From: Patescibacteria group bacterium AH-259-L05
GTDB lineage: Bacteria > Patescibacteriota > Patescibacteriia > UBA2591 > UBA6264
NCBI GenBank assembly: GCA_027717985.1
Contig: JALLOO010000002.1
Coordinates: 7,257-71,256 of the forward strand
Direction of reading: 5' to 3'
Length of the DNA stretch: 64,000 nt
The notes under the pieces were generated by a model. The model was not told the origin of the DNA. It saw only the letters and a list, made by a program, of their open reading frames with translations, and did no database searches. The position numbers and the translations under genes were made by a program. Positions 6,990 to 58,664 of this stretch are shown here, piece by piece (positions within the stretch are counted from its first letter, which is position 1; each line of letters opens with the position of its first letter).

Positions 6990-7080
6990 TTTTTTTGTCA
7001 TTCCGCAGGACCCCTTTGTCATTCCTCACGAGCAGAGCAAGAGAAGGTGATGCGGAATGAAAGGGAGAATGACATCAACA
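6990..7080. repeat. GTCATTCCGC-family palindromic repeat element
   Basis: tgtcattccgcagg...tgcggaatga...gaatgacatc, with inverted-repeat arms. Confidence 0.5.
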
Positions 7081-7872: not shown

Positions 7873-7980
7873 CTCAAAAAACAAAAAGCCAGCACAACGC
7901 TAGCCTAAATATATAAATATCTTTCAATTAAGTGAAATATTTTGGTGCATAATCTTTCAGTACACTGAAAGCTTTTATTA

Positions 7981-9318
7981 TTATGAAATTTGTAAAAATC
8001 GCGGTGTTAAATAAAAGGGAAGAGACACAAGAGTAACATTTTTATTATTAACTTTAACTCGCTTTCTTTTCAGCTCCCCGCCATATATTCTCATAAGGTG
8101 ATGATTTTTTACTGCTTTAGAAAATTCATATAGAGATCGCAGTCTTCCCGCTTTTCCTGATTTTACTTCTATTCCCATAATTTTCCCTTTATTATTTAAA
8201 CAAAAATCAATTTCCGCACTCCCTAAGCGTCTTTCTCGAGCCCAATAAAAAAGTTGTGCAGGGGCTTCTACAAACTGAGCTATAATATTTTGTCCAACAA
8301 CTTGTTCTGCTATTTTCCCACGATAGAACTCATTAAGATTAGTAAGATTTGTATAGTTTTCTTGAATGCCCATTTGATGATTTACTAGGCCTACATCTAA
8401 AAATAAAAGTTTTTTAGGCCGTTTTCTCTGAGGAACTAAAGGGAGGTCTGCTGATTTCGTTGCCTGAACTTGATATAAAAGCATCACCTTCTCTAACGTT
8501 GTAAACGCCGCGTTCATTTCACGACTTCTATAATTAGAATCACCAAATTTTTCATAGGTAATCGTGGTGCCTGCAAAAAGCGGCGCTGTTCCAATGATGT
8601 AGGTCAAGTATTTAACATTTGCTGAAGAGCTATATTTATATACATCTTCACTATAAGAAGTAAAAAGCGAAGAATAAACGCTTTTAAGCTTACTTATATT
8701 ATCTTTTTCTAAAAATAGTTTCACTATCTCCGGCATTCCTCCGACCATAGTATATTCATAAAATAACTTGAGCGCTTGTTGATGAATACCTTGAGGAATC
8801 TCTTTATTTAAGGATATGGTTTTTAAAAATTCTAAAAGCTGTATTTCTCCCTTGGCTTCTAAATACTCAAAAAAGTCTAAAGGGTAAAGATAAGCATATT
8901 CTATCCTCCCAACCGGCAGAGAAAATCCCTCTTTTTCAATTTTAGCTTGGAGTAAAGAGCCTGCCGCAATAACATGAATATTAGGCCTTTCTTCATAGAA
9001 AAATCGCAATAGTTTAATTAATATGGGAGAATTCTGGATTTCGTCAATAAAAATCAACGTCTTTCCCGGAATGATTTTTTGACGGAACTTTATCTGAATA
9101 ATTTTTTCAAAATCATCTAAAGAAAGCTCACTTTTAAAAAGGGCGAGATGTTCTGCTTTTTCTAAATTTATATAAATAAGATTTTTAAAATATTTTTTGC
9201 CAAACATTAAAATAGCAAAGGTTTTTCCAACCTGTCGAGCACCTCGTAAAATTAATGGTTTTCTTTCTTTTTTATTTTTCCAGTCCACTAAATAATTAAT
9301 GATTTTTCTGTTAAACAT
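7981..9318 (-). CDS. AAA+ ATPase of the COG1373/DUF4143 type
   Basis: Walker A ILRGARQVGKT and Walker B LIFIDEIQ. The likely true start is MFNRKIINYLVDW at 9318; the ORF-track start at 9387 is an upstream extension. Confidence 0.6.
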   Translation of the reverse strand: MFNRKIINYLVDWKNKKERKPLILRGARQVGKTFAILMFGKKYFKNLIYINLEKAEHLALFKSELSLDDFEKIIQIKFRQKIIPGKTLIFIDEIQNSPILIKLLRFFYEERPNIHVIAAGSLLQAKIEKEGFSLPVGRIEYAYLYPLDFFEYLEAKGEIQLLEFLKTISLNKEIPQGIHQQALKLFYEYTMVGGMPEIVKLFLEKDNISKLKSVYSSLFTSYSEDVYKYSSSANVKYLTYIIGTAPLFAGTTITYEKFGDSNYRSREMNAAFTTLEKVMLLYQVQATKSADLPLVPQRKRPKKLLFLDVGLVNHQMGIQENYTNLTNLNEFYRGKIAEQVVGQNIIAQFVEAPAQLFYWARERRLGSAEIDFCLNNKGKIMGIEVKSGKAGRLRSLYEFSKAVKNHHLMRIYGGELKRKRVKVNNKNVTLVSLPFYLTPRFLQIS

Positions 9319-10907: not shown

Positions 10908-11199
10908 TTCATACCTCCTCGTTTTACCTATTGAAAAGAACCAAAATCACCATTGTTAAGTCTATCAAACTTCTCCTCTCTTGTCAACCCCTCAAAGCAA
11001 AAACAGGGACTATAATCTAGCCCCTGCTCTTTTTCCAATACTTGAACGTAAGCCATAAACCTACAAGAAACATGCTTAAACCAAGATAGGGAAATTCCTT
11101 CAGTAAAAATATTTCAAAAAGCGACTCTGACACGCTCAACGCCCACCATATCACAATACCAATGCGCTCTTTCGTCATTATGTCCTCCTTGTTTATATA

Positions 11200-11275
11200 A
11201 GAACCTGCTCGCTCCGCTCACAGAACCTTGAAGTTTGGAAGGGGCGATATTTGTATTCAAACTTTAAGAACCACT
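11200..11275. repeat. composite AAGAACC...GAACCTTG / aagtttgaaagg...tatttgtat..aagaacc element
   Basis: aagaacctgctcgctccgctcacagaaccttgaagtttggaaggggcgatatttgtattcaaactttaagaacc; the same arrangement recurs at 45768..45866. Confidence 0.55.
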
Positions 11276-11309: not shown

Positions 11310-12563
11310 TCAAGTAGTATTCTTCATTTTCTCAATTGCAGGCAACACTATCCTTTCTATAGCTTGTCGGGAGTGTTGATAATAAGGTTTCCATGCTCGC
11401 TTGGCAAAATAATGCCAGCCAACACAAGAATGAACTGCTGGTAATGTGCTCTTTAAAACTTTTTTAAACTCTTTATCTTTCAATGCTTTTTGCAATCCTC
11501 CGTATTTTTTAACTTTTTGTCGAAAAATAAAATTGTATTCTTTAACTAATTCCTGCCACTCTACAATTCTTCTTCTTCTTAAAGGTTTCCGTTTTCTCCA
11601 CATTCTTCCATATTTATTTGGCTGCCACCATGGAAACGGGTCTTTTGGTGTTGAATCCATTTCCCATGACGCAGGTAAAATCTTAGAAATAGGAAATGAT
11701 TTCGCTTTTGACCAATTAAATTGTGAGGGTAGACAAAAATCTATTTTATCCTTTACTTTTACAAACACCCCCATATCTTTTGCCTTTGATCTTTGATCGA
11801 TTTTCCGTAAGCCTTTTTTTGAACCTGCATTTTCCCAATCCCGCATTAAAACAAAGACATTTTTCTGCAAATACTCTAATACTTGTAAAAAAATTTTAGG
11901 TGAATGAACTGTTCTGCGAACCCGAGCCCATACCAGATCTTCTGGTAAGTGTTGCGGCCGCCTCACATATTTGGGTCGTTTCCGATAATCCTCAGCATTC
12001 ATAAACAAATCTTTAAATAAACAACTATAGACTATTGCGCGTTGGTATCCATCCCTGAACTTAATACACACGGGCCCATGAAAATTATATCTCCCCAACG
12101 ATTTATCAGGAATTAAAAGTATAAGATCGGGAAATATTTCATGGACTATTTTAAGTGTACGTTTATCTACAGCCCCTTCTGGCGGCCAAAACCATGTTGC
12201 TTTGCCTAAAAATTTTTCAACAACCTCTCGATCCAAAATAATCTGGGCTCGGATTAAATCGCTTGATAACATAGGCAAGATAGCATGAGAATAAGCGCTC
12301 GTTCCAATTTCAATGTTCCCGTATTGTTTAGCAATTTTTAAATTTGCAAGCGTCTTTGTAGCCAATTGCCCAATATCTGAACTCGCTCCCAACCATGATT
12401 CAATGGTCCACCCCTGAAGCTGAACGCCACGCAGAATTATACCATGCTTCATAGCTAAAGAAGTGGGTAAAAACTTGACCGTAAGATTTGTTTTCACCCA
12501 CTTCGGTATAAATGTTTTTGGATCAAATGGCTGATAGCCATGAATTAAATCATAAAAATGCAT
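11310..12563 (-). CDS. divergent GH57-like protein
   Basis: IHGYQPF (region I-like), GNIEIGTSAYSHAILPML (region II-like) and WFWPPEGAV (nucleophile region). Region IV is not obvious. Confidence 0.45.
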   Translation of the reverse strand: MHFYDLIHGYQPFDPKTFIPKWVKTNLTVKFLPTSLAMKHGIILRGVQLQGWTIESWLGASSDIGQLATKTLANLKIAKQYGNIEIGTSAYSHAILPMLSSDLIRAQIILDREVVEKFLGKATWFWPPEGAVDKRTLKIVHEIFPDLILLIPDKSLGRYNFHGPVCIKFRDGYQRAIVYSCLFKDLFMNAEDYRKRPKYVRRPQHLPEDLVWARVRRTVHSPKIFLQVLEYLQKNVFVLMRDWENAGSKKGLRKIDQRSKAKDMGVFVKVKDKIDFCLPSQFNWSKAKSFPISKILPASWEMDSTPKDPFPWWQPNKYGRMWRKRKPLRRRRIVEWQELVKEYNFIFRQKVKKYGGLQKALKDKEFKKVLKSTLPAVHSCVGWHYFAKRAWKPYYQHSRQAIERIVLPAIEKMKNTT

Positions 12564-13800: not shown

Positions 13801-13864
13801 ATTATGTTTCCTTTTTTTGATTAAAATTAAATTACATTAATTTATATACAATGAAAATTTAATT

Positions 13865-15364
13865 TCAAGGTTCTGACGAGCGAAGCGAGGAATGGTTCTT
13901 ATTATTTTGTCTTGTTTCGCGAATAACCCTTCTATAGAGGGTTACATATTTTTTGGCAGGAAGCTTCCATGAATATGATTCTTTCATGGCACGACGCACC
14001 AATGTTTTCCACGCTCCCCGACGTTTATAATCTTCTAATGCACGCGCAATGGCAAATAAAAGATCTTGAGACGTATACGAGGTAAACACAAACCCATTGC
14101 CTCTGCCTGTTTGGGGATTGTAGTCACTAATCGTATCAAGTAATCCACCGACCGCGTGCACAATAGGAATGGATCCATAGCGCAAGCTAATTAATTGCGA
14201 AATCCCACATGGTTCAAAACGAGATGGCATTAAATAAATATCTGAAGCAGCATATACCTTTCTCCCAATATGCTCTTGAAACGGTGAAAAAAATAATAAA
14301 TTTTTACGGTGCTTTCGCGCAGCTTTTCTTAAAAAATCTCTATATACCCCGCCACCGCTCCCTACAATAGCAATTTGTACATCAAGTTTCAAAAGATAAT
14401 CAAGTATATCAATAATTAATTCAAATCCTTTTTGCTCAGTCAATCGATTCGCTAAACCGATCAAGGGCGCTTTAGGATCAACTCTTAAACCAAATCGTTT
14501 TTGCAGCAACACCTTATTCTCACTCTTTTTTTCTAATGAACTTGCATCGTAATTTACATACACATCTTCATCAAATTGCGGATTAAAAATAGTATAATCA
14601 ACACCATTGATAATACCATATAAATCTTTTTTTCTTCCCCGTAAATAACTATCTACATTACATCCATGTTCGGGGGTTAATATTTCCTGTGCATATCGCG
14701 GACTGACGGTATTAATAAGATCGCTGTAGAGAATACCGCGCAGCGCAAAATTAAGCCAATGTAATTGATCTTTATCATGGGGCGGCAAACCCTTTCCATT
14801 ATCTTTTTTCTCTGGCGGAATCTTCCACCAATCTTCTGGTCCTTGAAATAATAAATTATGAATAGTGAAAAGTGTTCCAATATTTTTAAGCGTGTCATCA
14901 CGATTGTATTGTAATTTCAAATAATTAGGAATAAGTCCCGCATGCCAATCATGAGCATGAATAACCTGCGGCTTAAGTCCTAAAACCTTAAGTAGTTTAA
15001 GGGACGCAAGGTTAAATAATAAAAAACGAAGACCGTCGTCTTCATACCCATACAATTTATGCCGTGAACCAAATAATTCTCGCTGGCAAATAAATATAAC
15101 CGGATATTTATCAGGACATATTATTTTCTTAAACCCAAACCTGTATTCTTTCCCTCCAAATTCTACTGAAATCCTTTCCTTTAAATTCTCCATACCCCAT
15201 CCTTTTTTACCAATAAACCCATAATACGGAGTAAATACGACTATTTCATGTCCTAGTCGAACTAATGCACGCGGCAAAGATCGCGCCACATCAGCAAGCC
15301 CACCGCTTTTTGAATACGGAGAAATCTCAGAACTTACATGAACAATTTTTAAAGGCCGTACCAT
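13865..15364 (-). CDS. glgA: glycogen (starch) synthase, GT5
   Basis: KIVHVSSEISPYSKSGGLADV and the GT-B C-terminal motifs. The last roughly 12 codons (…HSSLRSSEP) are encoded by an AAGAACC-family repeat. Confidence 0.85.
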   Translation of the reverse strand: MVRPLKIVHVSSEISPYSKSGGLADVARSLPRALVRLGHEIVVFTPYYGFIGKKGWGMENLKERISVEFGGKEYRFGFKKIICPDKYPVIFICQRELFGSRHKLYGYEDDGLRFLLFNLASLKLLKVLGLKPQVIHAHDWHAGLIPNYLKLQYNRDDTLKNIGTLFTIHNLLFQGPEDWWKIPPEKKDNGKGLPPHDKDQLHWLNFALRGILYSDLINTVSPRYAQEILTPEHGCNVDSYLRGRKKDLYGIINGVDYTIFNPQFDEDVYVNYDASSLEKKSENKVLLQKRFGLRVDPKAPLIGLANRLTEQKGFELIIDILDYLLKLDVQIAIVGSGGGVYRDFLRKAARKHRKNLLFFSPFQEHIGRKVYAASDIYLMPSRFEPCGISQLISLRYGSIPIVHAVGGLLDTISDYNPQTGRGNGFVFTSYTSQDLLFAIARALEDYKRRGAWKTLVRRAMKESYSWKLPAKKYVTLYRRVIRETRQNNKNHSSLRSSEP

Positions 15365-16594: not shown

Positions 16595-17254
16595 TTACCT
16601 TTTCATTAAACTTAATTGATACTCTTTTACCTCTTTGCGTAAATATTTTTTTACTCTTGGCCAAGAATAACTTGAATCAAAAACTCTAATACGCCGACTG
16701 CGTGTAGCAGGAGTAGATTTTTCAGCATCAACAAAATAAATAAGTCCCCTCAGAGCCGTTAATACATTAAAGGTTGGATACTTCTCTTTTGTTAATCTTA
16801 TAATCTTTTTAAGGCCCATTTTCTGAATTAAATAATACATATCAATAAAATCTCTCTTAGTTCCTCTCTGAACAATGGCAGCTACTTTCATAGCTGCGAT
16901 ATCTTCAACAGAAGCTACAGGCACGCCGGAAATTAAAACCTTCGGGCGAATCAAAGCATATGGATAATAAAAACAACTAATGTCTACGCCCTGAACGCTT
17001 AATATTAATGTATCTTGCTCTATAACATCCTCTTCAATATCTTCTATAGAGAAGTGTCTATAAAAATCTTTTATTAATAAACGTCCATCAAATTTCTCAG
17101 GACTATAAAAATCAAAATCCTGGGATGTTCGATGGCCCATCTGTAAAGCCAATGCTGTCCCGCCAGATAAATACCCTCCACGTTCTTTAAGAAAAGTTAA
17201 TTTCTCAAAAACTTTTCTTTTTTGATAACTTAAAATAGTCTTTAAATACATCAA
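16595..17254 (-). CDS. AbiEii/AbiGii-like nucleotidyltransferase (putative toxin)
   Basis: GGTALALQMGHRTSQDFDFY matches the GGTAL plus DxD nucleotidyltransferase signature. It is shorter than typical AbiEii. Confidence 0.5.
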   Translation of the reverse strand: MMYLKTILSYQKRKVFEKLTFLKERGGYLSGGTALALQMGHRTSQDFDFYSPEKFDGRLLIKDFYRHFSIEDIEEDVIEQDTLILSVQGVDISCFYYPYALIRPKVLISGVPVASVEDIAAMKVAAIVQRGTKRDFIDMYYLIQKMGLKKIIRLTKEKYPTFNVLTALRGLIYFVDAEKSTPATRSRRIRVFDSSYSWPRVKKYLRKEVKEYQLSLMKR

Positions 17255-17549
17255 AGCGCGGATTAATATCTAAAATAGCCCATTTATAAACTTGTTTAGG
17301 GATCTTCACATCTAAAATTTTAGCCCAATAATTAAGAGATTTAGGGAACCACATCCCTCGTCTTGGATTTTTAACAACTTCAACAATATCTTGCTTTTTA
17401 TATGTTTTAAAAAGCCATTTCACTGCCCTTATATTACCACGATTTAAAACCTGTTGAATAATCAACTCTTTGTCATCGGGATCATAAGGATCCATTTGAG
17501 AAATGTCATACGACCACAAACATGTTTGTAAAAATTTAGGTAAAGCCAT
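17205..17549 (-). CDS. hypothetical protein; possible cognate partner of the AbiEii-like gene (50-nt overlap)
   Basis: Upstream overlapping ORF of 114 aa. No wHTH AbiEi signature was recognised. Confidence 0.3.
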   Translation of the reverse strand: MALPKFLQTCLWSYDISQMDPYDPDDKELIIQQVLNRGNIRAVKWLFKTYKKQDIVEVVKNPRRGMWFPKSLNYWAKILDVKIPKQVYKWAILDINPRFDVFKDYFKLSKKKSF

Positions 17550-17669
17550 ATATTAATTTATTTATTCTATACCCTTATTGTACCATAAATAGACCCAAAA
17601 AGCAAGATAGACACATACCTATTTTAGTGCTACAATATGTATGAACTCATAAATCTTAAATTTGCAATC

Positions 17670-18770
17670 ATGTCTACGCTTGATGATATAAATAAAATCA
17701 AACAACTTGATACATCAGGTATGGCTGATTTTATTGCTGATCTCCCCAACCAAATCCTCAAAGCATATAAACAAAGCCAGAAAATAAAATTGCCTAAAAA
17801 TTTTAAAAATATCTCAAATATTGTCGCCTGCGGCATGGGCGGTTCAGCTATTGGCGGTGACGTAGTCAAGGCACTGATTGATAATCAATTATCATTGCCG
17901 TTTATTATAAACCGCTCGTATCAATTGTCCCAAACAGTCAATAAAAACAGCTTGGTGTTTTTAGTTAGTTTTTCAGGCAATACCCAAGAAACCTTATCCT
18001 GCGCGAAAGTTGCAATACAGAAAAAAGCGCATATATTTGTTATCACCAGCGGTGGAAAACTATTAGTACTCGCTCAAGAAAAAAAAATACCCTTATTTAC
18101 ATTTTCATATAAAGGTCCGCCCCGCGCAAGCTTAGGCTATTTATTTATACCCATACTTATAACGTTAGAAAAACTTGGTCTTGTTAATCTTGATGCATTC
18201 AACATCACAGAATCAATTGAAAAACTAAAAAAATTTAACCAGCTATTTTACCCAGAAACGCCAAGCGAAAAAAATATTGCAAAATACTTAGCATATTTTA
18301 TATTTGACCATCTCCCTATTATTATTGCCCCTGAAGAGCTTAATGGTATTGCAAGACGCTTTAAAACACAAATGGCAGAAAATGCAAAAACATTTTCTTT
18401 TTTTGAAACTGCTCCTGAAATTTTTCACAATTCTATTGAAAGCCAATTTCCGTGGCGATTAAAAGATGATATTGTTTTTTTAATTCTCTCTCCTTTGTCT
18501 TCCCGCGCTTCGCGCGGGAAGACAAGAGAAGAAATGTCATCCCGAGCGCAGTCAAGGGAAGAAAAATTCATCACTGTTTTTAAAAAATTATTAGATAAAG
18601 AAAATATTCGCTGGGAAGCAATACCTGCATCTGGAGATAACGTATTTCTCAATATACTCTCTTTTATTCTTGCGGGTGATTGGATTAGTTTTTATTTGTC
18701 TATCCTTAATGAAACTGACCCCACGCCTGTTAAAAAAATACAATGGCTCAAGCGTCAAATAAAACAATGA
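17670..18770 (+). CDS. bifunctional phosphoglucose/phosphomannose isomerase (SIS domain)
   Basis: NIVACGMGGSAIGGDVV SIS motif, plus a C-terminal PGI/PMI-type region. The likely start is MSTLDDIN at 17670. It carries a palindromic repeat insertion at 18497-18568. Confidence 0.6.
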   Translation: MSTLDDINKIKQLDTSGMADFIADLPNQILKAYKQSQKIKLPKNFKNISNIVACGMGGSAIGGDVVKALIDNQLSLPFIINRSYQLSQTVNKNSLVFLVSFSGNTQETLSCAKVAIQKKAHIFVITSGGKLLVLAQEKKIPLFTFSYKGPPRASLGYLFIPILITLEKLGLVNLDAFNITESIEKLKKFNQLFYPETPSEKNIAKYLAYFIFDHLPIIIAPEELNGIARRFKTQMAENAKTFSFFETAPEIFHNSIESQFPWRLKDDIVFLILSPLSSRASRGKTREEMSSRAQSREEKFITVFKKLLDKENIRWEAIPASGDNVFLNILSFILAGDWISFYLSILNETDPTPVKKIQWLKRQIKQ

Positions 18771-20389
18771 TTAATAATAAATTATTAATTATCAATAAGT
18801 GGCCATGGCTTGGCTATTTTTTTGTTTTTGCCCTTGGGTTTATTATTTTTATCTATATCCTTATCCCGCCTGGTATTATTGGCCCTGATAGTTTTTATCA
18901 CACCAAAATGGCACTTATGATACAAGAGCAGGGATTGATTAAAAGTTTTCCTTGGACACAATTTACCACATATAAGTACTTGTTTGTTGACCACCACTTT
19001 GGCTACCATTATCTTCTTATTCCATTTTTAAGTTTGCCATCACCTCAAAATCTTGATCCATCATCATTAGAGATTGATCAATTAATTAAAGCAAAGCTCG
19101 GAACTGCATTTTTTGCCGCACTTGTTTTTGTAATGATATATTGGTTTTTAAAACGGTTTAAAATAAAGGGTGCCTTATTATGGACACTGCTTACTTTTTT
19201 ACTTACACCGTTTTTGCTCCGACTTTCTTTAATCAGGGCGCCCGCAATTTCCCTTATTATTCTTATTTTAGGATTTTATCTTATTATAAAGAAAAAGTAT
19301 ATGTTGCTTTTTCTCCTCTCATTTATATACGTATGGACGCATGGCACCTGGCCGTTGATACTCGTAGTGGTAGTTATATATTGCTTGGCAAATGCGATAA
19401 AAGAATTGATTAATAAATGGCCGCACATACACATTTTAAAAATTTTCTTCAATAAAACAAACATCAAACTACTGTTAACATGTGTCTCTGGTCTGGCTGC
19501 TGGCTTAATCATTAATCCTTATTTTCCTAAAACACTGCCCTTTTACTGGTTTCAAACCATAAAAATTGCCATCATCAACTACTCAAATAAAATTGGTGTT
19601 GGCGCTGAATGGTACCCATTTGACCCCTCTCTTCTAATTATTGTCCTTCTGCCGCTTTTAATTTTCTGGGTTATTGCTACGGCATGGTTTATAACAAGGG
19701 TAAAAAAGCAAAATACCACTACTTGGTTTTTCACTCTCCTCTCTGTCTTCTTTCTCCTCTACTCATATAAAGCACAACGAAATATTGAATATTTTATTCC
19801 GCCCGCACTCTTTTTAAGTGCATTTATTTTTGGTCAAATGAAAGTTTATATAAACTGGAAGAATATTAAAAATAATATTGCAAAACTATTTCAAGGTCCA
19901 GAGGGTATATTTTACTTTTTATTCAGCATATTTTTTGCTGTTTTTATTGGCTTTTTTATTATTTTTTATCTTAATTTCAGTATTGTAAGACTGCATACGC
20001 AATACAAAGAAAAACGACCTATAAATCAATTTCAAATGGCATCGCATTGGCTTAAAAATAATACACAAAAGGGCGAGATTATATTTCAAAGCGACTGGGA
20101 TATTTTCCCGCAACTATTTTACTTTAATACTCATAATTACTACATCAATGGACTTGATCAAACCTTTATGTATGAATATGATAAAGAGTTGTATACTGCA
20201 TGGCACAATATAGTCTCTGGCAAAACAAGTCCTCAAGATATACTCCAAACTATATCAAAAAAATTTAATGCCTCGTATGTATTCATTGATAAAAAACAAG
20301 ACAAAACATTTGCCAAACTTCTAAAAAAATCTCCGCAGTTTAAAAAAACATATGAAGATGGTGAGGCAATTATCTACAAAATACCATGA
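18767..20389 (+). CDS. GT-C fold polytopic membrane glycosyltransferase (PMT/ArnT-like)
   Basis: More than 10 predicted TM helices. The start ATG overlaps the pgi stop (ATGA) and the stop overlaps the GT2 start. Confidence 0.5.
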   Translation: MINNKLLIINKWPWLGYFFVFALGFIIFIYILIPPGIIGPDSFYHTKMALMIQEQGLIKSFPWTQFTTYKYLFVDHHFGYHYLLIPFLSLPSPQNLDPSSLEIDQLIKAKLGTAFFAALVFVMIYWFLKRFKIKGALLWTLLTFLLTPFLLRLSLIRAPAISLIILILGFYLIIKKKYMLLFLLSFIYVWTHGTWPLILVVVVIYCLANAIKELINKWPHIHILKIFFNKTNIKLLLTCVSGLAAGLIINPYFPKTLPFYWFQTIKIAIINYSNKIGVGAEWYPFDPSLLIIVLLPLLIFWVIATAWFITRVKKQNTTTWFFTLLSVFFLLYSYKAQRNIEYFIPPALFLSAFIFGQMKVYINWKNIKNNIAKLFQGPEGIFYFLFSIFFAVFIGFFIIFYLNFSIVRLHTQYKEKRPINQFQMASHWLKNNTQKGEIIFQSDWDIFPQLFYFNTHNYYINGLDQTFMYEYDKELYTAWHNIVSGKTSPQDILQTISKKFNASYVFIDKKQDKTFAKLLKKSPQFKKTYEDGEAIIYKIP

Positions 20390-21123: not shown

Positions 21124-21196
21124 TTGTCATTCCTTTTTTATTGTCATCCCGCACGAAACGCGGGATGACAAGGGGGTGTGCGGGATGACAAGGGGG
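21124..21196. repeat. GTCATCCCGC palindromic element, probable bidirectional terminator
   Basis: tgtcatcccgcacgaaacgcgggatgaca is a perfect 10-bp stem, followed by a second cgggatgacaaggggg half-site. It lies between convergent genes. Confidence 0.55.
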
Positions 21197-24974: not shown

Positions 24975-24988
24975 ATATCATCCCTCCT

Positions 24989-25078
24989 CTTGTCATCCCA
25001 CACTCAATGTGGGAAGACAGAGAGTGGGTTGGAATGACAAAAAAAGATGTCATTCCGCGGACTTTATCCGCGAGATTT
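24989..25078. repeat. GTCATCCCAC / TCATTCCGCGG palindromic elements
   Basis: tgtcatcccacactcaatgtgggaagaca and ccgcggactttatccgcgag hairpins lie between the solute-binding protein start and the galU stop. Confidence 0.5.
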
Positions 25079-25944
25079 CAAATATTTACTCTCCTTAAAA
25101 ACTTTCTTAAATCTTTATTAATCTCTTTATCTTTCAATCCAAGCGCAATATTTGCCTCTAAAAAGCTTTGTTTACTGCCTACAGTATACCACGCTCCTTT
25201 AAATTCGCAAGCATATGCTGGTCGTTTTGTGCGTAATAATCCGTCAAACCCCTCAACTAGACCAAACTCTTTTCCTTTTGGAAGTTTAATGCCCTGAAGC
25301 ACTTCAAGTATTTCAGGAGTAATAATATATCGTCCTACGATTCCTAATAATGAAGGCGCATGCTCTGGTTTTGGTTTTTCTACAATTTTGTGTAGCTGAT
25401 ATACTCCATCTTCCACTTTTATCCCCCCGACTGAACCAAAATATTTAATCTCGCTCTTTTTCACTCGCTTTACCGCAACTACAGGATCTCCATATCGTTT
25501 ATATACGTCAATGAGCTGTCCGATACATGGCGATGCACTATCAATAATGTCATCGCCAAGCATAACTACGCATGGCTCATCTTTTACAAATTCATAAGCA
25601 CACAAAATTGCATCACCAAATCCTTTGGGCTCACGTTGTCTAATAAATACAAACTCTGCCATGTGATGAATCGGGCGGATGCTTTTAAGCGCTTTTATTT
25701 TTTTGCGCTTTTTCAACCAATATTCCAATTCAAAATTATAGTCAAAATAGTCTTCAATTGCCCGCTTTGTTGAAGAGGTGATTAAAAAAATCTGCTTGAT
25801 TCCTGCCTTAACTGCTTCTTCTACCACGTAATGAATTACGGGTTTATCTACCACGGTAAGCATTTCTTTTGGCTGTGACTTGGTTGCGGGTAAAAACCGC
25901 GTTCCTAAACCAGCTACCGGAATAATTGCTTTAGTAATCTTCAT
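25078..25944 (-). CDS. galU: UTP--glucose-1-phosphate uridylyltransferase
   Basis: AGLGTRFLPATKSQPKEMLTVVDKP. Confidence 0.85.
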   Translation of the reverse strand: MKITKAIIPVAGLGTRFLPATKSQPKEMLTVVDKPVIHYVVEEAVKAGIKQIFLITSSTKRAIEDYFDYNFELEYWLKKRKKIKALKSIRPIHHMAEFVFIRQREPKGFGDAILCAYEFVKDEPCVVMLGDDIIDSASPCIGQLIDVYKRYGDPVVAVKRVKKSEIKYFGSVGGIKVEDGVYQLHKIVEKPKPEHAPSLLGIVGRYIITPEILEVLQGIKLPKGKEFGLVEGFDGLLRTKRPAYACEFKGAWYTVGSKQSFLEANIALGLKDKEINKDLRKFLRRVNI

Positions 25945-29518: not shown

Positions 29519-32500
29519 ATGTCAAAACATAAATCAAAATCACAATGGCGGTCTAAAAAAATTAGTTCGCCAAAAAAATCAAAATTCACCAAGAAAAAGT
29601 TATCTCCGGCGGAGCAAAGTCTTCAAAAAGCAAAAAAAACCACCGCACCAAAACGAAAAATAAAACGAGCTAAACCCCAACCCCGTACCAAAACAAGTTC
29701 GGTACGGGGCAAGAAAACAAATCTGGTGAAAAAGCTTTTTATTTTTATTATTTTTCTCGTCCTTGTCTTTGGTGCAATCGGGAGCATCAGTCTATTTTTG
29801 CTTACCAAAAGCCTGCCGCATCCAGAAAAATTAATAGAGCGAAGTATTGCCCAAAGTACGAAAATATATGCCCGAGATGAAAAAACACTGTTATATGAAA
29901 TATTTTCTGAACAAAGGCGAACCGTAGTTGATCTGGAAAAAATTCCTCAGCATCTTGTCTATGCCACTATTGTTTCAGAAGACAGAGATTTTTTTACTCA
30001 TCCAGGATTTGATATTTCTGGGATTGCGCGCGCCATTCTCGTTGATATTCTTCGCGGAGGTAAAGTTCAAGGTGGCTCAACCCTCACCCAGCAGTTTATA
30101 AAAAATGCCTTTTTAACGCGAAAAAAAACATACACCAGAAAAATCAAAGAACTGCTCATGGCATATCAAGTTGAAAAAAAATTTAGCAAACTTGAAATAC
30201 TTCAGATGTACTTTAATGAAATTCCCTACGGATCAAATGCATATGGCGCTGAAGCAGCGAGTCAAATCTATTTTTCAAAATCAGTACGCGACCTAACGTT
30301 AGATGAAACAACGCTCTTAGCTGCGCTTCCGAAAGCGCCTACCTATTACTCTCCCTATGGTCAACACACTGAAGAACTACTTTTTCGCCAACACTTTATT
30401 TTAGATGTTATGACTGAAGAAGGATATATTACCTCTTCGCAGGCTTTGCAGGCTAAAAGCATTAATACGTTAGAAAAAATTACGTCACGTCGTGAAAATA
30501 TTCGCGCTCCTCACTTTGTCTTCTACGTGAGAGAATTATTAACTGAAAAATACGGTGATCGTCTTGTAGAACAGGGCGGGCTCAAGGTTATTACCACACT
30601 TGACTTTGACAAACAAACAATTGCAGAACAAGCAATTGAAAAATATGCAGAGCGTAATGAAGAAATATTTGATGCTACAAATGCGGCATTAGTTGCCATT
30701 GATGTAGATACCGGACAAATTCTTGCTATGGTAGGATCAAAAGATTTTTTTAACGAAGAAATTGATGGCCAAGTAAATGTAGTAACACGAGAACGTCAAC
30801 CAGGATCATCCTTTAAACCAATTGTCTATGCGACCGCATTTGAAAAAGGCTATACCCCTAATACAATTATATTTGATGCAGAAACAAGTTTTGGCCCTAA
30901 AACACCTGAACCAGATGCCCAAGATTATATCCCGCGAAACTATGATGAAAAATTCAGGGGTCCGGTTAGTATGCGAAAAGCATTAGCAGGATCATTAAAT
31001 ATCCCAGGTGTAAAAACAATGTATTTAGCAGGGGTTAATAACGTTTTAAACACGGCGGAACGTATGGGCTACACTACCTTAGAAGACAGAGAACAATACG
31101 GTCTCTCGCTTGTTTTAGGAGGGGGAGAGATAAAACTATTAGAACATGTAGCAGCTTTTGCTATTTTTGCCCGTGAAGGTGTTAAAATCCCTACAACGAG
31201 TATTTTAAAAGTGGAAGATAACAAAGGTAATATTTTAGAAGAATTACCTAAAAAACCCAAACTTCCTCAAACAGTATTTGATCCGCAAATCGCCCGGCTC
31301 ATCAATGACATCTTATCTGATAATCAATCACGGGCGTTTATGTTTGGCTATCAAAACTTTTTAACACTCCCTAATCGGCCTGTTGCCGCAAAAACAGGTA
31401 CTACCAATGACTTTCGTGACGCGTGGACTGTTGGCTTTACGCCAAATCTTGCAGCTGGTGTATGGGTGGGGAATAACAACAATGATGTAATGGGTGAAAA
31501 AGCTGATGGTTCAACGGTTGCCGCGCCCATTTGGAATGAATTTATGAAGCGTGCCTTAGAAAATACCTCTCCTCAACCATTTACTCCTCCTGAAACAATC
31601 TACGTAGACAAGCCAATATTAAACGGGGAAATCCCTGGGAAAATTACGCTCAAAATTGACACGGCATCAAAAAAATTAGCAACTGAGCTCACGCCTGACT
31701 CACAAATAATAGAAAAAACCTTTGTAAGCTTTTATCCTATTCTCTACTACATAGATAAAAATAACCCGCAAGGACCGCTCCCCTCAAACCCAAAAGCTGA
31801 TTATCAATATGAATTCTGGGAAGAGGGAATTACCAACTGGCTTACTGCCGTATCTGAATTACTTGCCTCACCAGCTTCTCCCTCTGTCATCCTGCCACTT
31901 CAGGATGACAAAGAGGAGGGACAGGATGACAAAGAGGAGGGACAGGATGACAAAGAGAGCGTCATCCCGAGCGAAGACGGGGAAGGCCCCAAAGTTGTTA
32001 TTTCTGATTTTATATTTGACCTTGCGCTTGAAGGACTTGAAATACCACCAACTGAATATGATGATGTCCATATTCCAGCAAATGAACCGTATATAAAAAT
32101 TCTTTCTCCTTCAAATAATACAATCATTAATGAAAATGTTATTCGGATAAAGGTAGAAGCATCAGCGCCGCGTGGACTTAAAAAAATAACATGTTCTATT
32201 GATGATGCACCGCTTGATAGTATTGTGGTAAACAGCCCAAATATTCAGTCATACACCTGTGTCCTTGGCCTTAGCGGGATCTCTTCGGGAAAGCATACTA
32301 TTAAAGCAACCGCGCTTGATGATGTTGGTAACAACAATACCGACGCTATTCAAATAATTACCGCTCAAGGATTTGAAAGGACATTTGAATGGCTTTCACC
32401 AAAAAATAATGATGTGGTATATCAAGGTAATTTTCCACTCACACTCTCAGTTCTCACTCCGCCGACTAAAATCAATACGATAAAGTTTTTCGCACAAAAT

Positions 32501-32674
32501 CAAAACACGTATCAGCTTTCACTTATCAGCACTATATTTAATCCTGAAACTGTTGGTGTCATTGAAACGCCTTGGAATTTAGCTGACAAAGGAATGTATG
32601 AACTATGGGCAGAAATGACTGATATTGATGGCCAAACACAGACCAGCAACAAAATCCAAATTGAAATTGAATAA
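29519..32674 (+). CDS. mrcA: class A penicillin-binding protein (transglycosylase plus transpeptidase) with long C-terminal extension
   Basis: GT51 motifs (EDRDFFTHPGFD, GGSTLTQQ), a transpeptidase SxxK region, and a C-terminal domain of roughly 300 aa containing a repeat-encoded DDKEEGQ x2.5 insert. Confidence 0.85.
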   Translation: MSKHKSKSQWRSKKISSPKKSKFTKKKLSPAEQSLQKAKKTTAPKRKIKRAKPQPRTKTSSVRGKKTNLVKKLFIFIIFLVLVFGAIGSISLFLLTKSLPHPEKLIERSIAQSTKIYARDEKTLLYEIFSEQRRTVVDLEKIPQHLVYATIVSEDRDFFTHPGFDISGIARAILVDILRGGKVQGGSTLTQQFIKNAFLTRKKTYTRKIKELLMAYQVEKKFSKLEILQMYFNEIPYGSNAYGAEAASQIYFSKSVRDLTLDETTLLAALPKAPTYYSPYGQHTEELLFRQHFILDVMTEEGYITSSQALQAKSINTLEKITSRRENIRAPHFVFYVRELLTEKYGDRLVEQGGLKVITTLDFDKQTIAEQAIEKYAERNEEIFDATNAALVAIDVDTGQILAMVGSKDFFNEEIDGQVNVVTRERQPGSSFKPIVYATAFEKGYTPNTIIFDAETSFGPKTPEPDAQDYIPRNYDEKFRGPVSMRKALAGSLNIPGVKTMYLAGVNNVLNTAERMGYTTLEDREQYGLSLVLGGGEIKLLEHVAAFAIFAREGVKIPTTSILKVEDNKGNILEELPKKPKLPQTVFDPQIARLINDILSDNQSRAFMFGYQNFLTLPNRPVAAKTGTTNDFRDAWTVGFTPNLAAGVWVGNNNNDVMGEKADGSTVAAPIWNEFMKRALENTSPQPFTPPETIYVDKPILNGEIPGKITLKIDTASKKLATELTPDSQIIEKTFVSFYPILYYIDKNNPQGPLPSNPKADYQYEFWEEGITNWLTAVSELLASPASPSVILPLQDDKEEGQDDKEEGQDDKESVIPSEDGEGPKVVISDFIFDLALEGLEIPPTEYDDVHIPANEPYIKILSPSNNTIINENVIRIKVEASAPRGLKKITCSIDDAPLDSIVVNSPNIQSYTCVLGLSGISSGKHTIKATALDDVGNNNTDAIQIITAQGFERTFEWLSPKNNDVVYQGNFPLTLSVLTPPTKINTIKFFAQNQNTYQLSLISTIFNPETVGVIETPWNLADKGMYELWAEMTDIDGQTQTSNKIQIEIE

Positions 32675-37364: not shown

Positions 37365-37411
37365 AGTATACTTCTCATTTCTGTATTATTACTTAAAGTC
37401 TGGATAAAGAT

Positions 37412-37466
37412 ATCATTCCTTTCAGACTTCAAGGTTCTTCCGAACGAAGTGAGGAATGATTCTTAT
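37412..37466. repeat. AAGAACC-family element nested in a 9-bp inverted repeat (atcattcct...aggaatgat)
   Basis: cttcaaggttcttccgaacgaagtgaggaatgattcttat lies in the divergent mltG/ychF intergenic region. Confidence 0.5.
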
Positions 37467-38614: not shown

Positions 38615-38706
38615 TTAAATTCGTCATTCGTCATCCCACACCCCATTCGTCACCTCGCAACTTTTAGCTGCAGGGTGGCACTTTTTCTTGTCATCCAGCT
38701 TCGCGG

Positions 38707-38812
38707 GATGATAAAGTGATGGGATGACAAAGGAATAGGATGACAAAGTGATGGGATGACAAAGGAATAGGATGACAAAGTGATGGGATGACAAAGGAAT
38801 AGGATGACAAAG
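38707..38812. repeat. tandem array: 3.3 copies of the 32-nt unit gatgacaaagtgatgggatgacaaaggaatag (built from 16-nt gatgacaaag-like subunits)
   Basis: Direct repeats with no spacers, preceded by tcgtcattcgtcatcccaca and gtcatccagcttcgcgggatga hairpins. Confidence 0.7.
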
Positions 38813-38920
38813 AGGAGCGGAAGTTATCAACTTGACAGAATTCCAATTAAGTATTATGCTTAAAATAGATCATTATCCTCATTATGAGGATTAACTGTTC
38901 ATTACAAAAGGAGTTATGCT

Positions 38921-42199: not shown

Positions 42200-42232
42200 T
42201 CCCTGTATCAACTACAGGGGTTTTTCTTTTTG
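42200..42232 (+). terminator. rho-independent terminator CCCTGTAtcaactaCAGGGG+T-run
   Basis: Immediately 3' of the 1089-aa gene. Confidence 0.6.
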
Positions 42233-42251
42233 TCATTCCGCGACCTTTTTT

Positions 42252-42283
42252 TGTCATTCCGCGACCAGTGGTCGCGGAATGAC
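42252..42283. repeat. GTCATTCCGCGACC palindromic element
   Basis: gtcattccgcgaccagtggtcgcggaatgac is a perfect 14-bp stem, preceded by a second tgtcattccgcgacc half-copy. Confidence 0.6.
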
Positions 42284-42351
42284 AAAGGTGGGTTGACTTT
42301 TTTCTAAAATCTGTCATGATATAAATAACTAATACGTAAAGGAGGTATGCT

Positions 42352-43695: not shown

Positions 43696-43773
43696 ATACG
43701 TCTTTAAACTACGAAATATATTTTTTGTGTCATCCCGCAAAATTGCGGAATGACAAAAAAAATATTAAAAAAT

Positions 43774-44223: not shown

Positions 44224-44267
44224 GATTTTTAAAATTTAGCATTAAAAATAACAAACCTTTTAAGGTT

Positions 44268-44636: not shown

Positions 44637-44682
44637 AAAAACACTTATTCTGGTTAGTGCTTTGCGCTCCACAGTTAGTATA

Positions 44683-44722
44683 AGAACCTGCTCGCTTCGC
44701 TCGCAGAACCTTGAAATCCCTT
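44683..44722. repeat. AAGAACC-family element
   Basis: aagaacctgctcgcttcgctcgcagaaccttgaa. Confidence 0.55.
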
Positions 44723-45729: not shown

Positions 45730-45767
45730 ACCATTACTATACACCTTTTTTATATTTTTGTTAAGAA

Positions 45768-45866
45768 AACTATAAGAACCATGCTTCGCAGAACCTTGAA
45801 GTTTGAAAGGAATGATATTTGTATCCAAACTATAAGAACCATGCTTCGCAGAACCTTGTTGTTCGC
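45768..45866. repeat. two direct copies of an AAGAACC-family element separated by aagtttgaaaggaatgatatttgtatcc
   Basis: aaactataagaaccatgcttcgcagaaccttg appears twice; the arrangement is shared with 11200..11275. Confidence 0.6.
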
Positions 45867-50049: not shown

Positions 50050-50352
50050 TATTGTTTTTGTCATTTCGACCGAGCGAACGAAGTGAGCGAGTGGAGAAAT
50101 CTCATACGTTTACGATAAATGAATGGTGTGAGATTCCTCGTCACGACTACGTCGTGACTCGGAATGACAAGGTGGGAGGTTTACTCGCTCTTCGTAAAGA
50201 CTTTTTCAGAGGTCTCATAATAAGAACCTTCCTTACTTTGTTCGGAGGAACTTTGAAGAGATATCTTTGATGTCATTGCGAGGAGCAGAGCGACGAAGCA
50301 ATCTCATGTATGAGATCCCTCGCTGCGCTCGGGATGACACTGCGTGTCATTT
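50050..50352. repeat. block of long imperfect palindromes of the GTCAT...GGATGACA family plus one AAGAACC-family element (50213-50252)
   Basis: tgtcattgcgaggagcagagcgacgaagcaatctcat/atgagatccctcgctgcgctcgggatgaca, and gtcatttcgaccgagcgaacgaagtgagcga...gtcgtgactcggaatgaca. Confidence 0.55.
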
Positions 50353-55706: not shown

Positions 55707-55972
55707 ACGTTTAGAATATAAAATAAAACTAGCTTTCTGTTTTTGGAAAGCTGGTCTGATCTATGTTGCGTTGTTATATAATTCTTTAATTTACTAAATC
55801 AAATACTAACTTTCCATCAGAAAGCCATGTAGCCCAATAGTTGCAAGAGTTATTTTTTGAAAAGTTAGTCATATGCAAGTAAGTTTATATAAGAAATAAA
55901 ATTTGGTCAATACTATCTATTGTGGATAAGTTATACTCTTAAAATTTGGCAGTTAAGATAGTATACCTTTTG

Positions 55973-56008
55973 AATTTCAAGGTTCTCGAGCGAAGCGAGA
56001 GGTTCTTA
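55973..56008. repeat. AAGAACC-family element overlapping the atpC stop
   Basis: caaggttctcgagcgaagcgagaggttcttata. Confidence 0.5.
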
Positions 56009-56269
56009 TATTTCTGCTAAAATTACCACTTCTTCGGGTTTTACCTCTAAAAATCCTTTTTTGATTTCAATAGTTTGTATTTGTTCTTTTTCGTATCGCT
56101 CAGGTTTTATAGATTTTTTAATTTTAATTACTCCTTTTTTAAGCGGTGTGATTAAAGGAATGTGGTGGTCAAGAATAGATATTTCTCCATCAATTGATGG
56201 CACGCTTAATAGACCAATACTTCCTTCAAATAATGTTTTCTCTAAGGTGTAAATAAAAAGATTGAACAT
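56006..56269 (-). CDS. atpC: F1 ATP synthase epsilon subunit (beta-sandwich domain only, 87 aa)
   Basis: …GLLSVPSIDGEISILDHHIPLITPLKKGVIKIK…. Confidence 0.75.
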   Translation of the reverse strand: MFNLFIYTLEKTLFEGSIGLLSVPSIDGEISILDHHIPLITPLKKGVIKIKKSIKPERYEKEQIQTIEIKKGFLEVKPEEVVILAEI

Positions 56270-57653: not shown

Positions 57654-58664
57654 TTATTTTAATGCTTCTTGGCTCGCAATTACTTCTAGAATTTCGTTCG
57701 TAATAGCAGATTGGCGTGCTTTGTTATAAAACAAGGTGAGATTTGTTAGAATTTCTCCTGCATTATCAGATGCATTTTTCATCGCAACCATTCGTGCAGA
57801 ATGTTCAGACGCATTTGTTTCTAAAATCATATGGTGGATTTGAATTTTAACTAAGAGGGGTAAAAGTTTGTCAAGTATTATTTCTTGTGATGGTTCAAAT
57901 ATATATTCGTAGTTATATGGAGATGAAGTTTGTTTTTTCCTTGACTCGCTTTGCTCGCTCGGAATGACAGGGGAGGGAGAGGGCTCGCTCGGAATGACAG
58001 GGGAGGGAGAGGGCTCGCTCGGAATGACAGGGGAGGAAGAGGCATATCTGACGGATTGGGGAGTAATCCCTTTGACAATTTCTTCAATCCCCATTTTTGT
58101 AATTGGTAAAACTTGGCGGATAACAGGATCTTGTTTTAGCGTGGAAATAAAGTTGGTATATGCGCACATAATTTTTTTATATTGACCGTTTTTATATATA
58201 TCAATAATTTTTTCAGCAAAAGGCAGTGTTTGTTCTAACTTTATATAATCACCAAAACCAGTAAATTCATAATGTACGGGTATATTTCGAAAATCAAAGT
58301 ATTTCTTTGCTTTTTTCCCAACCGTGATAATATCGATATCATCGTTTTTTTGAATGTAAGCATGCGTCTTTTTTAGCATATTATTATTATATCCGCCACA
58401 TAAACCTTTATCACTGGTAATGATAACAAGACATAGTTTGTTTGTCTGCGTTTTTTTTCTTAGTAAGAGGTGACGCTTTTGAGACACTTGTTCACTTACA
58501 TTTGAAAGAAGTTTGAGCGCATGTTCTGTATAAGGACGAGCATTGAGCGCATATTCTTGCGATCGCCGCATCTTAGTTGCGGAAACTGCTTCCATTGCAC
58601 GGGTAATTTGCTGCGTGTTTTTAATTGAGCGCATTCTGCGCTTTATATCTCGTCGAGATTCCAT
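57654..58664 (-). CDS. atpG: F1 ATP synthase gamma subunit with repeat-encoded insertion of roughly 45 aa
   Basis: The gamma N- and C-terminal helices are conserved. The internal SSSPVIPSEPSPSPVIPSEPSPSPVIPSEQSE is encoded by a 3x30-nt tandem repeat at 57953-58042. Confidence 0.85.
   Translation of the reverse strand: MESRRDIKRRMRSIKNTQQITRAMEAVSATKMRRSQEYALNARPYTEHALKLLSNVSEQVSQKRHLLLRKKTQTNKLCLVIITSDKGLCGGYNNNMLKKTHAYIQKNDDIDIITVGKKAKKYFDFRNIPVHYEFTGFGDYIKLEQTLPFAEKIIDIYKNGQYKKIMCAYTNFISTLKQDPVIRQVLPITKMGIEEIVKGITPQSVRYASSSPVIPSEPSPSPVIPSEPSPSPVIPSEQSESRKKQTSSPYNYEYIFEPSQEIILDKLLPLLVKIQIHHMILETNASEHSARMVAMKNASDNAGEILTNLTLFYNKARQSAITNEILEVIASQEALK

Follow-up and report, generated by a model that had tools for sequence, protein, structure and literature searches.

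Rickettsia palindromic elements (RPE) are about 100-150 bp long and restricted to Rickettsia, and work by Ogata et al. in 2000/2002 reportedly placed them typically in surface-exposed parts of proteins. RPE have been described as repeated, palindromic, hairpin-forming selfish DNA which occurs between genes and, in frame, inside apparently functional genes (PMC3733652). In-frame intragenic copies are also documented for repetitive extragenic palindromic (REP) sequences (PMC3733652; PMC6006769), the families of which are described as specific to one genome or to one REP-associated tyrosine transposase, or RAYT (PMC6006769). Here we describe a 64-kb stretch of DNA (the window, to which all unlabelled coordinates refer) from Patescibacteria group bacterium AH-259-L05, a member of the candidate phyla radiation (CPR), in which the gene for a bifunctional phosphoglucose/phosphomannose isomerase (PGI/PMI) carries a short GC-rich palindromic insert in frame. 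We consider it probable, at roughly three chances in four, that this insert represents one or two REP/RPE-like selfish hairpin elements tolerated in a loop of the protein and is not native coding sequence. Its behaviour is closest to that of RPE and of REP and REP doublets forming hairpins (REPIN), and it is a member of neither group as defined. The features of the locus are given below; L001, L002, L004 and L006 are homologous loci of related organisms.

17670-18770, plus strand: bifunctional phosphoglucose/phosphomannose isomerase gene, host of the insert (Pfam, TIGR02128)
18488-18568, plus strand: 81-nt block encoding SPLSSRASRGKTREEMSSRAQSREEKF, from nucleotide and codon alignments with L001, L002, L004 and L006
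18495-18525, no strand assigned: perfect hairpin TTGTCTTCCCGCGC-TTC-GCGCGGGAAGACAA with 14-bp arms, 100% complementary (repeat search)
18534-18561, plus strand: copy, truncated or degenerate, of a 25-nt hairpin that occurs in many phyla, ATGTCATCCCGAGCGCAG followed by TCAAGGGAAG (nhmmer match)

The first-pass annotation had called the host gene a SIS-domain PGI/PMI, and profile matches bear this out: the protein contains SIS (PF01380, 31 bits) and bact-PGI_C (PF10432, 106 bits) domains, both above Pfam cutoffs, and scores 218.9 bits against NCBIfam model TIGR02128 (cutoff 213.9). It is 100% identical to an NCBI Patescibacteria protein. The mechanically called open reading frame (ORF) begins at 17637; since homologs begin at MSTLD (17670) and a promoter-like site occupies 17608-17636, the true start is probably 17670. 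All 14 columns that are invariant among 119 homologs are kept in the window protein, including R152, E237 and H253. The ratio of nonsynonymous to synonymous substitution rates (dN/dS) outside the insert is 0.18 for window/L001, 0.18 for window/L002 and 0.175 for L001/L002, a level at which the gene appears to be under purifying selection and looks functional.

The closest homolog (protein P0002, locus L001), with 86% nucleotide identity to the window gene, belongs to a sister genome, JALLOP010000021.1, which is syntenic with the window over about 14 kb. Where the window has 81 nt, L001 has 36 nt (E-STKNETEFKQS), a net gain of 45 nt or 15 codons in the window which agrees with the in-frame insertion that had been proposed. 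Natural variation in length at this site had been named as one of the findings that would speak against an insertion. The VFLIL-to-ITVFKK segment measures 23 residues in 107 of the 119 homologs and is longer in only four of them (window 38, P0003 36, P0020 32, P0008 28), and the site is therefore not naturally length-variable.

Within the block, gtcttcccgcgc-ttc-gcgcgggaagac at 18497-18523 is an inverted repeat in which 3 nt separate arms of 12 bp, and an added TT/AA extends the arms to the 14 bp of the hairpin at 18495-18525. What had been described as a perfect 12-bp palindrome is thus confirmed in the full complementarity of its arms and corrected as to strict palindromy, given the spacer. 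Folded as single-stranded DNA, the hairpin reaches -18.5 kcal/mol compared to -5.6 +/- 1.9 in 200 shuffles (z -6.85, 0/200 as good); its apex on the minus strand reads GCGAAGC. It is missing from L001 and L002. Downstream, at 18536-18548, lies GTCATCCCGAGCG, in frame as had been stated, within the ORF at 17637-18770 (plus strand), the translation of which reads ...FLILSPLSSRASRGKTREEMSSRAQSREEKFITVF... across the insert. The composition of the insert is foreign to the gene: its core has 56% GC, a level reached in just 0.66% of all 66-nt windows across the 64 kb, versus 33.6% in the remaining gene, and the window of lowest codon adaptation in the gene starts exactly at 18495. No stop codon occurs in any of the three sense frames of the block. 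With this and a net length that is a multiple of three, the insert is predicted to be translated, which would enlarge a flexible loop by 15 residues. One alignment suggested that the insert consists of exactly 27 nt plus 18 nt; we do not claim this decomposition because it is sensitive to alignment parameters.

The hairpin is a "double-foot" member of a family defined by the foot TGTCATYCC...GGRATGACA, which is shared by 11 sites in the window. No strand is assigned to the intergenic sites.

6997-7073: family member in which the left foot is duplicated and the right foot distal, intergenic
18495-18561: the PGI/PMI insert, hairpin plus GTCATCCCGAGCG module, in frame
21126-21195: foot, hairpin GTCATCCCGCAC-GAAA-CGCGGGATGAC and duplicated right foot, intergenic, absent from the L001 spacer
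24992-25075: composite unit with the architecture of the PGI insert, intergenic, absent from the L001 spacer
31886-31990, plus strand: composite unit in the gene for a PBP1A-like protein, with a hairpin, three 21-nt right-foot repeats and then GTCATCCCGAGCGAAGACGGGGAAGG
38623-38815: hairpin followed by six tandem 16-nt right-foot repeats (GGATGACAAAGNNNNN), intergenic
42232-42290: duplicated foot and a perfect hairpin with 18-bp arms, TTTGTCATTCCGCGACCA-G-TGGTCGCGGAATGACAAA, intergenic
43729-43755: hairpin GTCATCCCGCAAAATTGCGGAATGAC, intergenic, between convergent genes
50133-50170: member with a right-foot motif (GAGATTCCTCGTCACGAC...GACTCGGAATGACAA), intergenic
50270-50345: REPIN-like inverted pair upstream of dnaN, with left arm GTCATTGCGAGGAGCAGAGCGACGAAGCAATCTC, intergenic
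57956-58045, minus strand: three tandem 30-nt units with TGTCATTCCGAGCGA in the ATP synthase gamma gene, encoding SPVIPSEPSP three times, in frame

Eight of these sites are intergenic, though intergenic DNA makes up only about 13% of the window. The remaining three lie in frame within the genes for PGI/PMI, the PBP1A-like protein and ATP synthase gamma, the same number of in-frame cases that the first-pass annotation had counted. Hairpin arms in the family measure 12-18 bp and units in the window 27-66 nt; the PGI hairpin can be aligned with the hairpins at 21141, 24990, 31884, 42250 and 43727. We treat the element at 50270-50345 as intergenic because the ORF that begins at 50381 matches the Pfam DnaN N-terminal domain from its own residue 1, which places the true dnaN start there. 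The sister genome is without elements at three orthologous sites, namely the PGI loop and the spacers matching 21126 and 24992.

GTCATCCCGAGCG with up to two mismatches occurs eight times in the window versus 0.30 expected, and 0 of 100 shuffles reach eight. Together with the profile matches from other phyla described below, this places the nucleotide identity among copies well beyond the chance level that had been allowed for as a refutation. The PBP1A-like ORF (29519-32674) reads ...SVILPLQDDKEEGQDDKEEGQDDKESVIPSEDGEG... at its insert, which falls in a linker that joins the transpeptidase domain (residues 390-677) to an Ig-like domain (857-930). ATP synthase gamma (57654-58664, minus strand) reads ...SPVIPSEPSPSPVIPSEPSPSPVIPSEQ..., and its residues 192-246 are without counterpart in solved gamma chains. 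Translation of the family motif gives SSRAQS in PGI but VIPSE in both PBP1A and ATP synthase gamma. That one motif is read in different frames speaks for an origin at the DNA level and not at the protein level, as does the intergenic position of most sites.

The inserts of PGI and PBP1A have a composite architecture in common with the intergenic unit at 24986-25082, in which a hairpin is followed by an A/G-rich spacer (some with tandem right-foot copies) and then by TGTCATYCCG... Direct tandem duplication of the foot together with a 9-23-nt spacer is frequent in the window (periods 16-30 nt), as in the six 16-nt repeats at 38722-38815, the three 21-nt repeats at 31903-31960 and the three 30-nt repeats at 57956-58045. 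Canonical REP clusters are not known to show such duplication. Tandems of the foot (GGATGAC or GTCATYC) are also present at 21163-21195, 42232-42260 and 6997-7024, and tandem partial feet occur in loci of other phyla as well (L103, L044, L118, L085, L123). Left of dnaN the asymmetric copies are on the plus strand and right of it on the minus strand, which would hint at an orientation relative to replication; the sites are few, and GC skew is confounded with gene strand. The PGI hairpin is perfectly paired, including an A-to-T change relative to the family foot that is compensated in both arms, and the copy at 24992 has the A-to-T change in one arm only. This pair of observations suggests hairpin-templated correction.

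An independent metagenome assembly (Logan SRR33235153; locus L002, protein P0003) contains an identical TCATCCCGAGCGCAGTCAAGGGAAGAAAAAT at the same PGI site. The hairpin upstream of it differs from that of the window (CCCTCGCCCAGC-TCA-CTGGGTGAGGG), and upstream of SSRAQSREEK the encoded peptides are wholly different. In a neighbour-joining tree from which the insert columns were removed, P0003 is the sister of the window protein (76% bootstrap), and P0002 branches outside the pair (97%). The GTCATCCCGAGCG part, being common to the window and L002/P0003, is therefore older than the window genome, and in this comparison the hairpin alone is specific to the window lineage. The two parts may reflect two events or one composite unit. 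The simplest history would be a single insertion of the GTCATCCCGAGCG module in the ancestor of the window and P0003 lineages, followed by lineage-specific additions alongside it.

Internal inserts of at least five residues were found in 12 of the 119 PGI/PMI homologs, all within the 54 best-scoring, and in none of the 65 more distant ones. Every source-named member of the 54 is from Patescibacteria or another CPR lineage, most of the 54 carrying no source name. GC-rich hairpins or family motifs form part of the inserts in all four relatives read at the DNA level (L003-L006), for example GCCCGCCAAAATTTTTCAGGAAAAAATTTAGGCGGGC in L006, ...CTCGCTTTGCTCG... in L005 and CATCCCATTTTTTGCGGGAAGACA in L003. 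Judging from these genes, small in-frame inserts are common in this clade. In-frame mini-inserts different from the loop insert occur elsewhere in PGI/PMI in L006 (P0004), L005 (P0006) and L003 (P0020), and likewise in P0005, P0021, P0029, P0040, P0051 and P0054, all of them among the 54 best-scoring homologs. Their sites fall at consensus positions 39-53, 80, 141, 153 and 204, and several of them are perfect DNA hairpins.

The best solved relative by sequence is the PGI/PMI of Pyrobaculum aerophilum (1tzb, E 1.1e-11), which is also the best fold match (Foldseek E 3e-16, template modelling score 0.80 on the target). The P. aerophilum enzyme (PDB 1tzb/1x9i) and the window protein share a two-SIS-domain architecture, to which the latter adds the 15-residue loop insertion and, at the N-terminus, a helical extension of the kind typical of the bacterial PRK08674 group. 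The AlphaFold2 model of the window protein has a mean pLDDT (predicted local distance difference test) of 93.5 and places the insert between a strand at 268-273 and a helix at 296-310, in a 22-residue stretch with block pLDDT 54-78 and values below 50 at residues 280-282. In the model of the insert-free P0002 (pLDDT 94.1), the same strand (268-273) is joined to a helix at 280-295 by a loop of six residues. Comparison of the models thus indicates that the insert enlarges a strand-to-helix loop from six to 22 residues with the flanking elements intact. The models support a location in a flexible, low-confidence loop between a conserved strand and helix, in line with the surface loop that had been expected.

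The second module of the PGI insert has a full form, the 25-nt hairpin GTCATYCCGAGCGNAGCGAGGRATC, which is present in the window at 50312-50339 (minus strand) as the right arm of the inverted pair upstream of dnaN. Sixteen nucleotides of the PGI GTCATCCCGAGCG module are identical to the copy at 50326. A genome scan for GTCATYCCGAGCGNAGCGAGGRATC, with one genome per species, gave at least 120 loci (L007-L126). The matches listed come from Acidobacteriota, Chloroflexota (some as closed chromosomes, OZ244803.1 among them), Gemmatimonadota, Planctomycetota, Nitrospirota, Armatimonadota, Verrucomicrobiota, the alpha, beta, gamma and delta groups of Proteobacteria (with a Reyranella isolate), Bacteroidota (with a Hymenobacter isolate), metagenome-assembled genomes of Firmicutes, the CPR groups Uhrbacteria and Roizmanbacteria, and one metagenome-assembled genome of Nanoarchaeota (DPANN). 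The GC content of these loci ranges from 0.34 to 0.72. The 25-mer was also found in 33 IMG/VR viral contigs (L127-L159), and PLSDB plasmids gave no match to the paired element or the 25-mer.

The Y and R positions of GTCATYCCGAGCGNAGCGAGGRATC covary in 136 of 137 copies (T-A 78, C-G 58, C-A 1), and the N position is free (A 48, C 40, T 30, G 19). The foot (T)GTCAT is kept in all window copies and in 137/137 copies across phyla, with T at the -1 base in 113/137. The fold ATYCC-GA-GC-GNA-GC-GA-GGRAT is the minimum free energy structure given by ViennaRNA and is consistent with the covariation; d(ATYCCGAGCGNAGCGAGGRAT) is a predicted minihairpin. Very stable DNA minihairpins with a GNA triloop carry the motif GCGNAGC. 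An identical apex occurs in the consensus sequences of enterobacterial REP (PMC2817692 Table 1). For about half of the cross-phylum copies, an inverted partner lies no more than 120 nt away, an arrangement similar to REPIN, and the PGI copy has no such partner.

A profile built solely from GTCATYCCGAGCGNAGCGAGGRATC copies of other phyla was run on the window with nhmmer and recovered the complete element at 50312-50339 with E 4e-10 and, over model positions 2-19 only, the PGI copy at 18534-18551 (E 5.5e-4), as well as three ATP synthase gamma copies (E about 1e-3) and the PBP1A copy (E 2e-3). In the PGI copy (18534-18561), only the 5' two-thirds match the 25-nt hairpin and the fold is lost (z -0.67), so we regard it as a truncated or decayed member. 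The "double-foot" form TGTCATCCCGCGC-N3-5-GCGCGGGATGACA was found in six metagenome contigs of high-GC organisms, as four distinct sequences. Rfam returned nothing at gathering threshold for any window element and, at the E-value threshold for eight loci with paired copies, only sub-threshold miRNA-like hairpin matches. Full-text literature searches with the element sequences gave unrelated primer matches only, and no description of the family was found in the literature on in-frame palindromic elements in Patescibacteria or on RAYT and REPIN across phyla. At the cross-phylum loci, there was no Y1 match and no recurrent neighbour gene; the largest clusters of neighbouring proteins belong to generic ABC, two-component, short-chain dehydrogenase/reductase and enoyl-CoA hydratase families. 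These 25-nt hairpins could tentatively be grouped as an unrecognised pan-prokaryotic superfamily of "GTCA-footed" minihairpins (core GTCATYCCGAGCGNAGCGAGGRATC, GNA triloop, tandem G-A pairs) with mobilisation machinery of its own, although we would bet somewhat against it. We are similarly guarded about the horizontal spread that this idea includes, by machinery which recognises single-stranded DNA hairpins and is other than GTAG-REP/RAYT pairs. The 25-nt cross-phylum hairpin is a more interesting lead than the PGI insert itself.

How the window family compares with described systems can now be stated. As with RPE, it inserts in frame in intact genes (three in the window, with an empty site in the ortholog), and in both cases the host genome is small, AT-rich and reduced. 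It differs from RPE in unit length (27-66 nt versus about 100-150 bp), in its CPR host and in its distribution across phyla; unit length and host are what set it apart from RPE-1 to RPE-8. Its resemblance to REP/REPIN, which are mobilised by RAYT (TnpA-REP) Y1 transposases and are imperfect palindromes of 20-40 nt, lies in short, dispersed, predominantly extragenic palindromic units (11 sites per 64 kb), in inverted pairs able to form long folds (window 50270-50345) and in the GCGNAGC-type apex. Unlike REP, it has TGTCAT in place of the 5' GT[AG]G (or CGTC) tag, direct tandem duplication of foot and spacer is common, one 25-mer is common to many phyla, and no RAYT flanked by family hairpins was found, whether in the window itself, at the sister genome's Y1_Tnp gene or at the at least 120 loci.

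Cyanobacterial small dispersed repeats (SDR), reportedly described by Elhai et al. in 2008, and miniature inverted-repeat transposable elements (MITE) were also compared. The window family resembles both as very small non-autonomous repeats which can sit in genes that remain intact and the presence of which varies between relatives. SDR differ in being unrelated in sequence and limited to cyanobacteria. MITE, reviewed in PMC10969869, have terminal inverted repeats derived from an insertion sequence (IS) and a target-site duplication, whereas in PGI the boundaries of the insert are ambiguous, and no IS with ends matching the family was found in the window or at the at least 120 loci. As we read it, the PGI insert is a case of the known phenomenon of in-frame selfish palindromic DNA, here in a CPR bacterium and unusually small.

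We propose that the segment 18495-18561 comprises one or two copies of small GC-rich, REP/REPIN-like, non-autonomous hairpin elements which would have landed in codons of the strand-to-helix loop of PGI/PMI. The GTCATCCCGAGCG part would have been the earlier arrival, in the ancestor shared by the window and L002 lineages, and the perfect hairpin would have been added alongside it later, in the window lineage only. Copies may move as single-stranded hairpins, which would need a trans-acting enzyme, for example an HUH/Y1 RAYT-like transposase not encoded in the window, or else replication-fork template switching. Selection would then spare only those insertions that keep the frame and fall in tolerant loops.

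Several observations weigh against this proposal. The more basal P0008/L004 has an AT-rich look-alike, TCATTACAATCTCAGTCAAGTGAAAAAAAATCA, at the same site (26/33 nt), which is a poor fit to a single recent insertion; this could be an older copy in decay or, in part, native sequence. The exact 27-nt PGI hairpin has no second identical copy in the window, and the GTCATCC (W=A) form was the only one that the metagenome scan for the double-foot hairpin gave. Neither a target-site duplication nor an exact boundary of the element can be defined for the PGI insert because alignments within it are ambiguous. Translation of the insert and activity of the enzyme are predictions from sequence. No transposase or other mobilising gene is linked to the family, with tblastn finding no Y1_Tnp in the window and no neighbour gene recurring at the at least 120 loci from other phyla. 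The sister genome does encode a Y1_Tnp protein (PF01797, 31.6 bits; IS200-like/RAYT-like; L001 14440-14984, minus strand), and this gene carries a hairpin, CGGGGGTCNGACCCCCG, within its N-terminal coding region and again about 20 nt past the stop. The copies there, palindrome GTCGGGGGTCGGACCCCCGAC in frame N-terminally and ATCGGGGGTCCGACCCCCGAT about 20 nt after the stop, give a REPtron-like arrangement. We do not link this gene to the family, its hairpin CGGGGGTCNGACCCCCG having 0 matches in the window.

A different reason for the presence of the insert would be a role of the hairpin in RNA or DNA, such as ribosome pausing, an RNase site or protein binding, in which case its likeness to intergenic copies would reflect a shared regulatory hairpin and not mobility. 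The exceptional stability (z -6.85) and the perfect pairing, in which the A-to-T departure from the family consensus is compensated between the arms, would favour such a role, and most members are intergenic, where REP-like hairpins are thought to act on transcripts (PMC3733652). However, no intrinsic terminator was called at the PGI hairpin and no T-run follows it, the closest ortholog has no hairpin, the window and L002 hairpins differ at the same site, and the second module is unfolded (z -0.67). We consider a regulatory role unlikely. Still less probable, in our view, is an adaptive surface loop rich in Arg, Ser, Glu and Lys which serves an interaction or solubility, with the DNA palindrome incidental. 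The reading frame is kept in a gene that appears to be under purifying selection, and the same loop is enlarged in four homologs, both of which could be expected of an adaptive loop. Yet the same DNA motif is translated in different frames across genes, most copies of the family are non-coding, the insert has low pLDDT and the worst codon usage in the gene, and the peptides of the window and P0003 are wholly different upstream of SSRAQSREEK.

The block could also be of local origin, through slippage, duplication-inversion or templated repair, or could be an artefact of single-cell amplification or assembly. Multiple displacement amplification can produce inverted chimeras, and the window genome is presumably a single-cell amplified genome, to judge by plate-style isolate names (AH-259-...), so that amplification might have made such a chimera here. 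Tandem duplications of the foot are common in the family and the boundaries of the insert are ambiguous, which would also fit a local event. These points are set against the GTCATCCCGAGCG module at the same position within the independent metagenome assembly L002, the 16 nt identical to the copy at 50326 together with motif matches in other phyla, and a reading frame that is intact, as is not expected of an amplification chimera. We give a local or artefactual origin very little credence, and insertion of selfish hairpin elements into a tolerant loop remains our preferred reading.

Other features of the window were noted beside this family. A second dispersed intergenic repeat of about 75 nt has the form AAGTTTGGATAAAGATATCATTCCTTTCAAACTTCAAGGTTCT-variable core-(T)GGTTCTTATA and occurs at 37388-37465, 55940-56021, 45767-45849 and 11198-11273, with further sites at 13858-13901, 44226-44263, 50218-50257 and 44675-44715; in L001 it is found at 7931-8079 and 11507-11586. 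Its core lies between direct GGTTCT repeats and is a GC-rich minihairpin (for example CGAGCGAAGCGAG or GCGAAGCA) or, in one copy, AT-rich, so that the repeat looks like a cassette with an exchanged centre. Directly upstream of the PGI gene, at 16595-17549 on the minus strand, is an AbiEii-like/DUF6922 pair resembling a toxin-antitoxin system, which is also present in the sister genome; these assignments are taken from Pfam matches of the orthologous L001 genes. A membrane protein encoded downstream of PGI is 26 residues longer in the sister genome (L001 5700-5850 versus window 19381-19444), the excess being an AT-rich low-complexity insert with repeated TTTTACG/TTTATC and not a GC hairpin.

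In-frame palindromic elements are a way in which selfish DNA makes new protein loops without killing essential genes, Rickettsia being the classic case, and the PGI insert extends the phenomenon to Patescibacteria. The genomes of CPR bacteria are tiny and gene-dense and offer little non-coding room; elements in tolerant loops would therefore be preferentially retained. In such genomes, inserts of this kind inflate the apparent divergence of proteins, create spurious small ORFs and disturb alignments and annotation. The 25-nt hairpin provides a searchable motif for seeking the mobilising enzyme and for tracing horizontal spread across distant hosts. If the superfamily is real, it would repeatedly supply CPR housekeeping proteins with loop insertions that keep the frame, and the PGI insert would be one visible tip of it.

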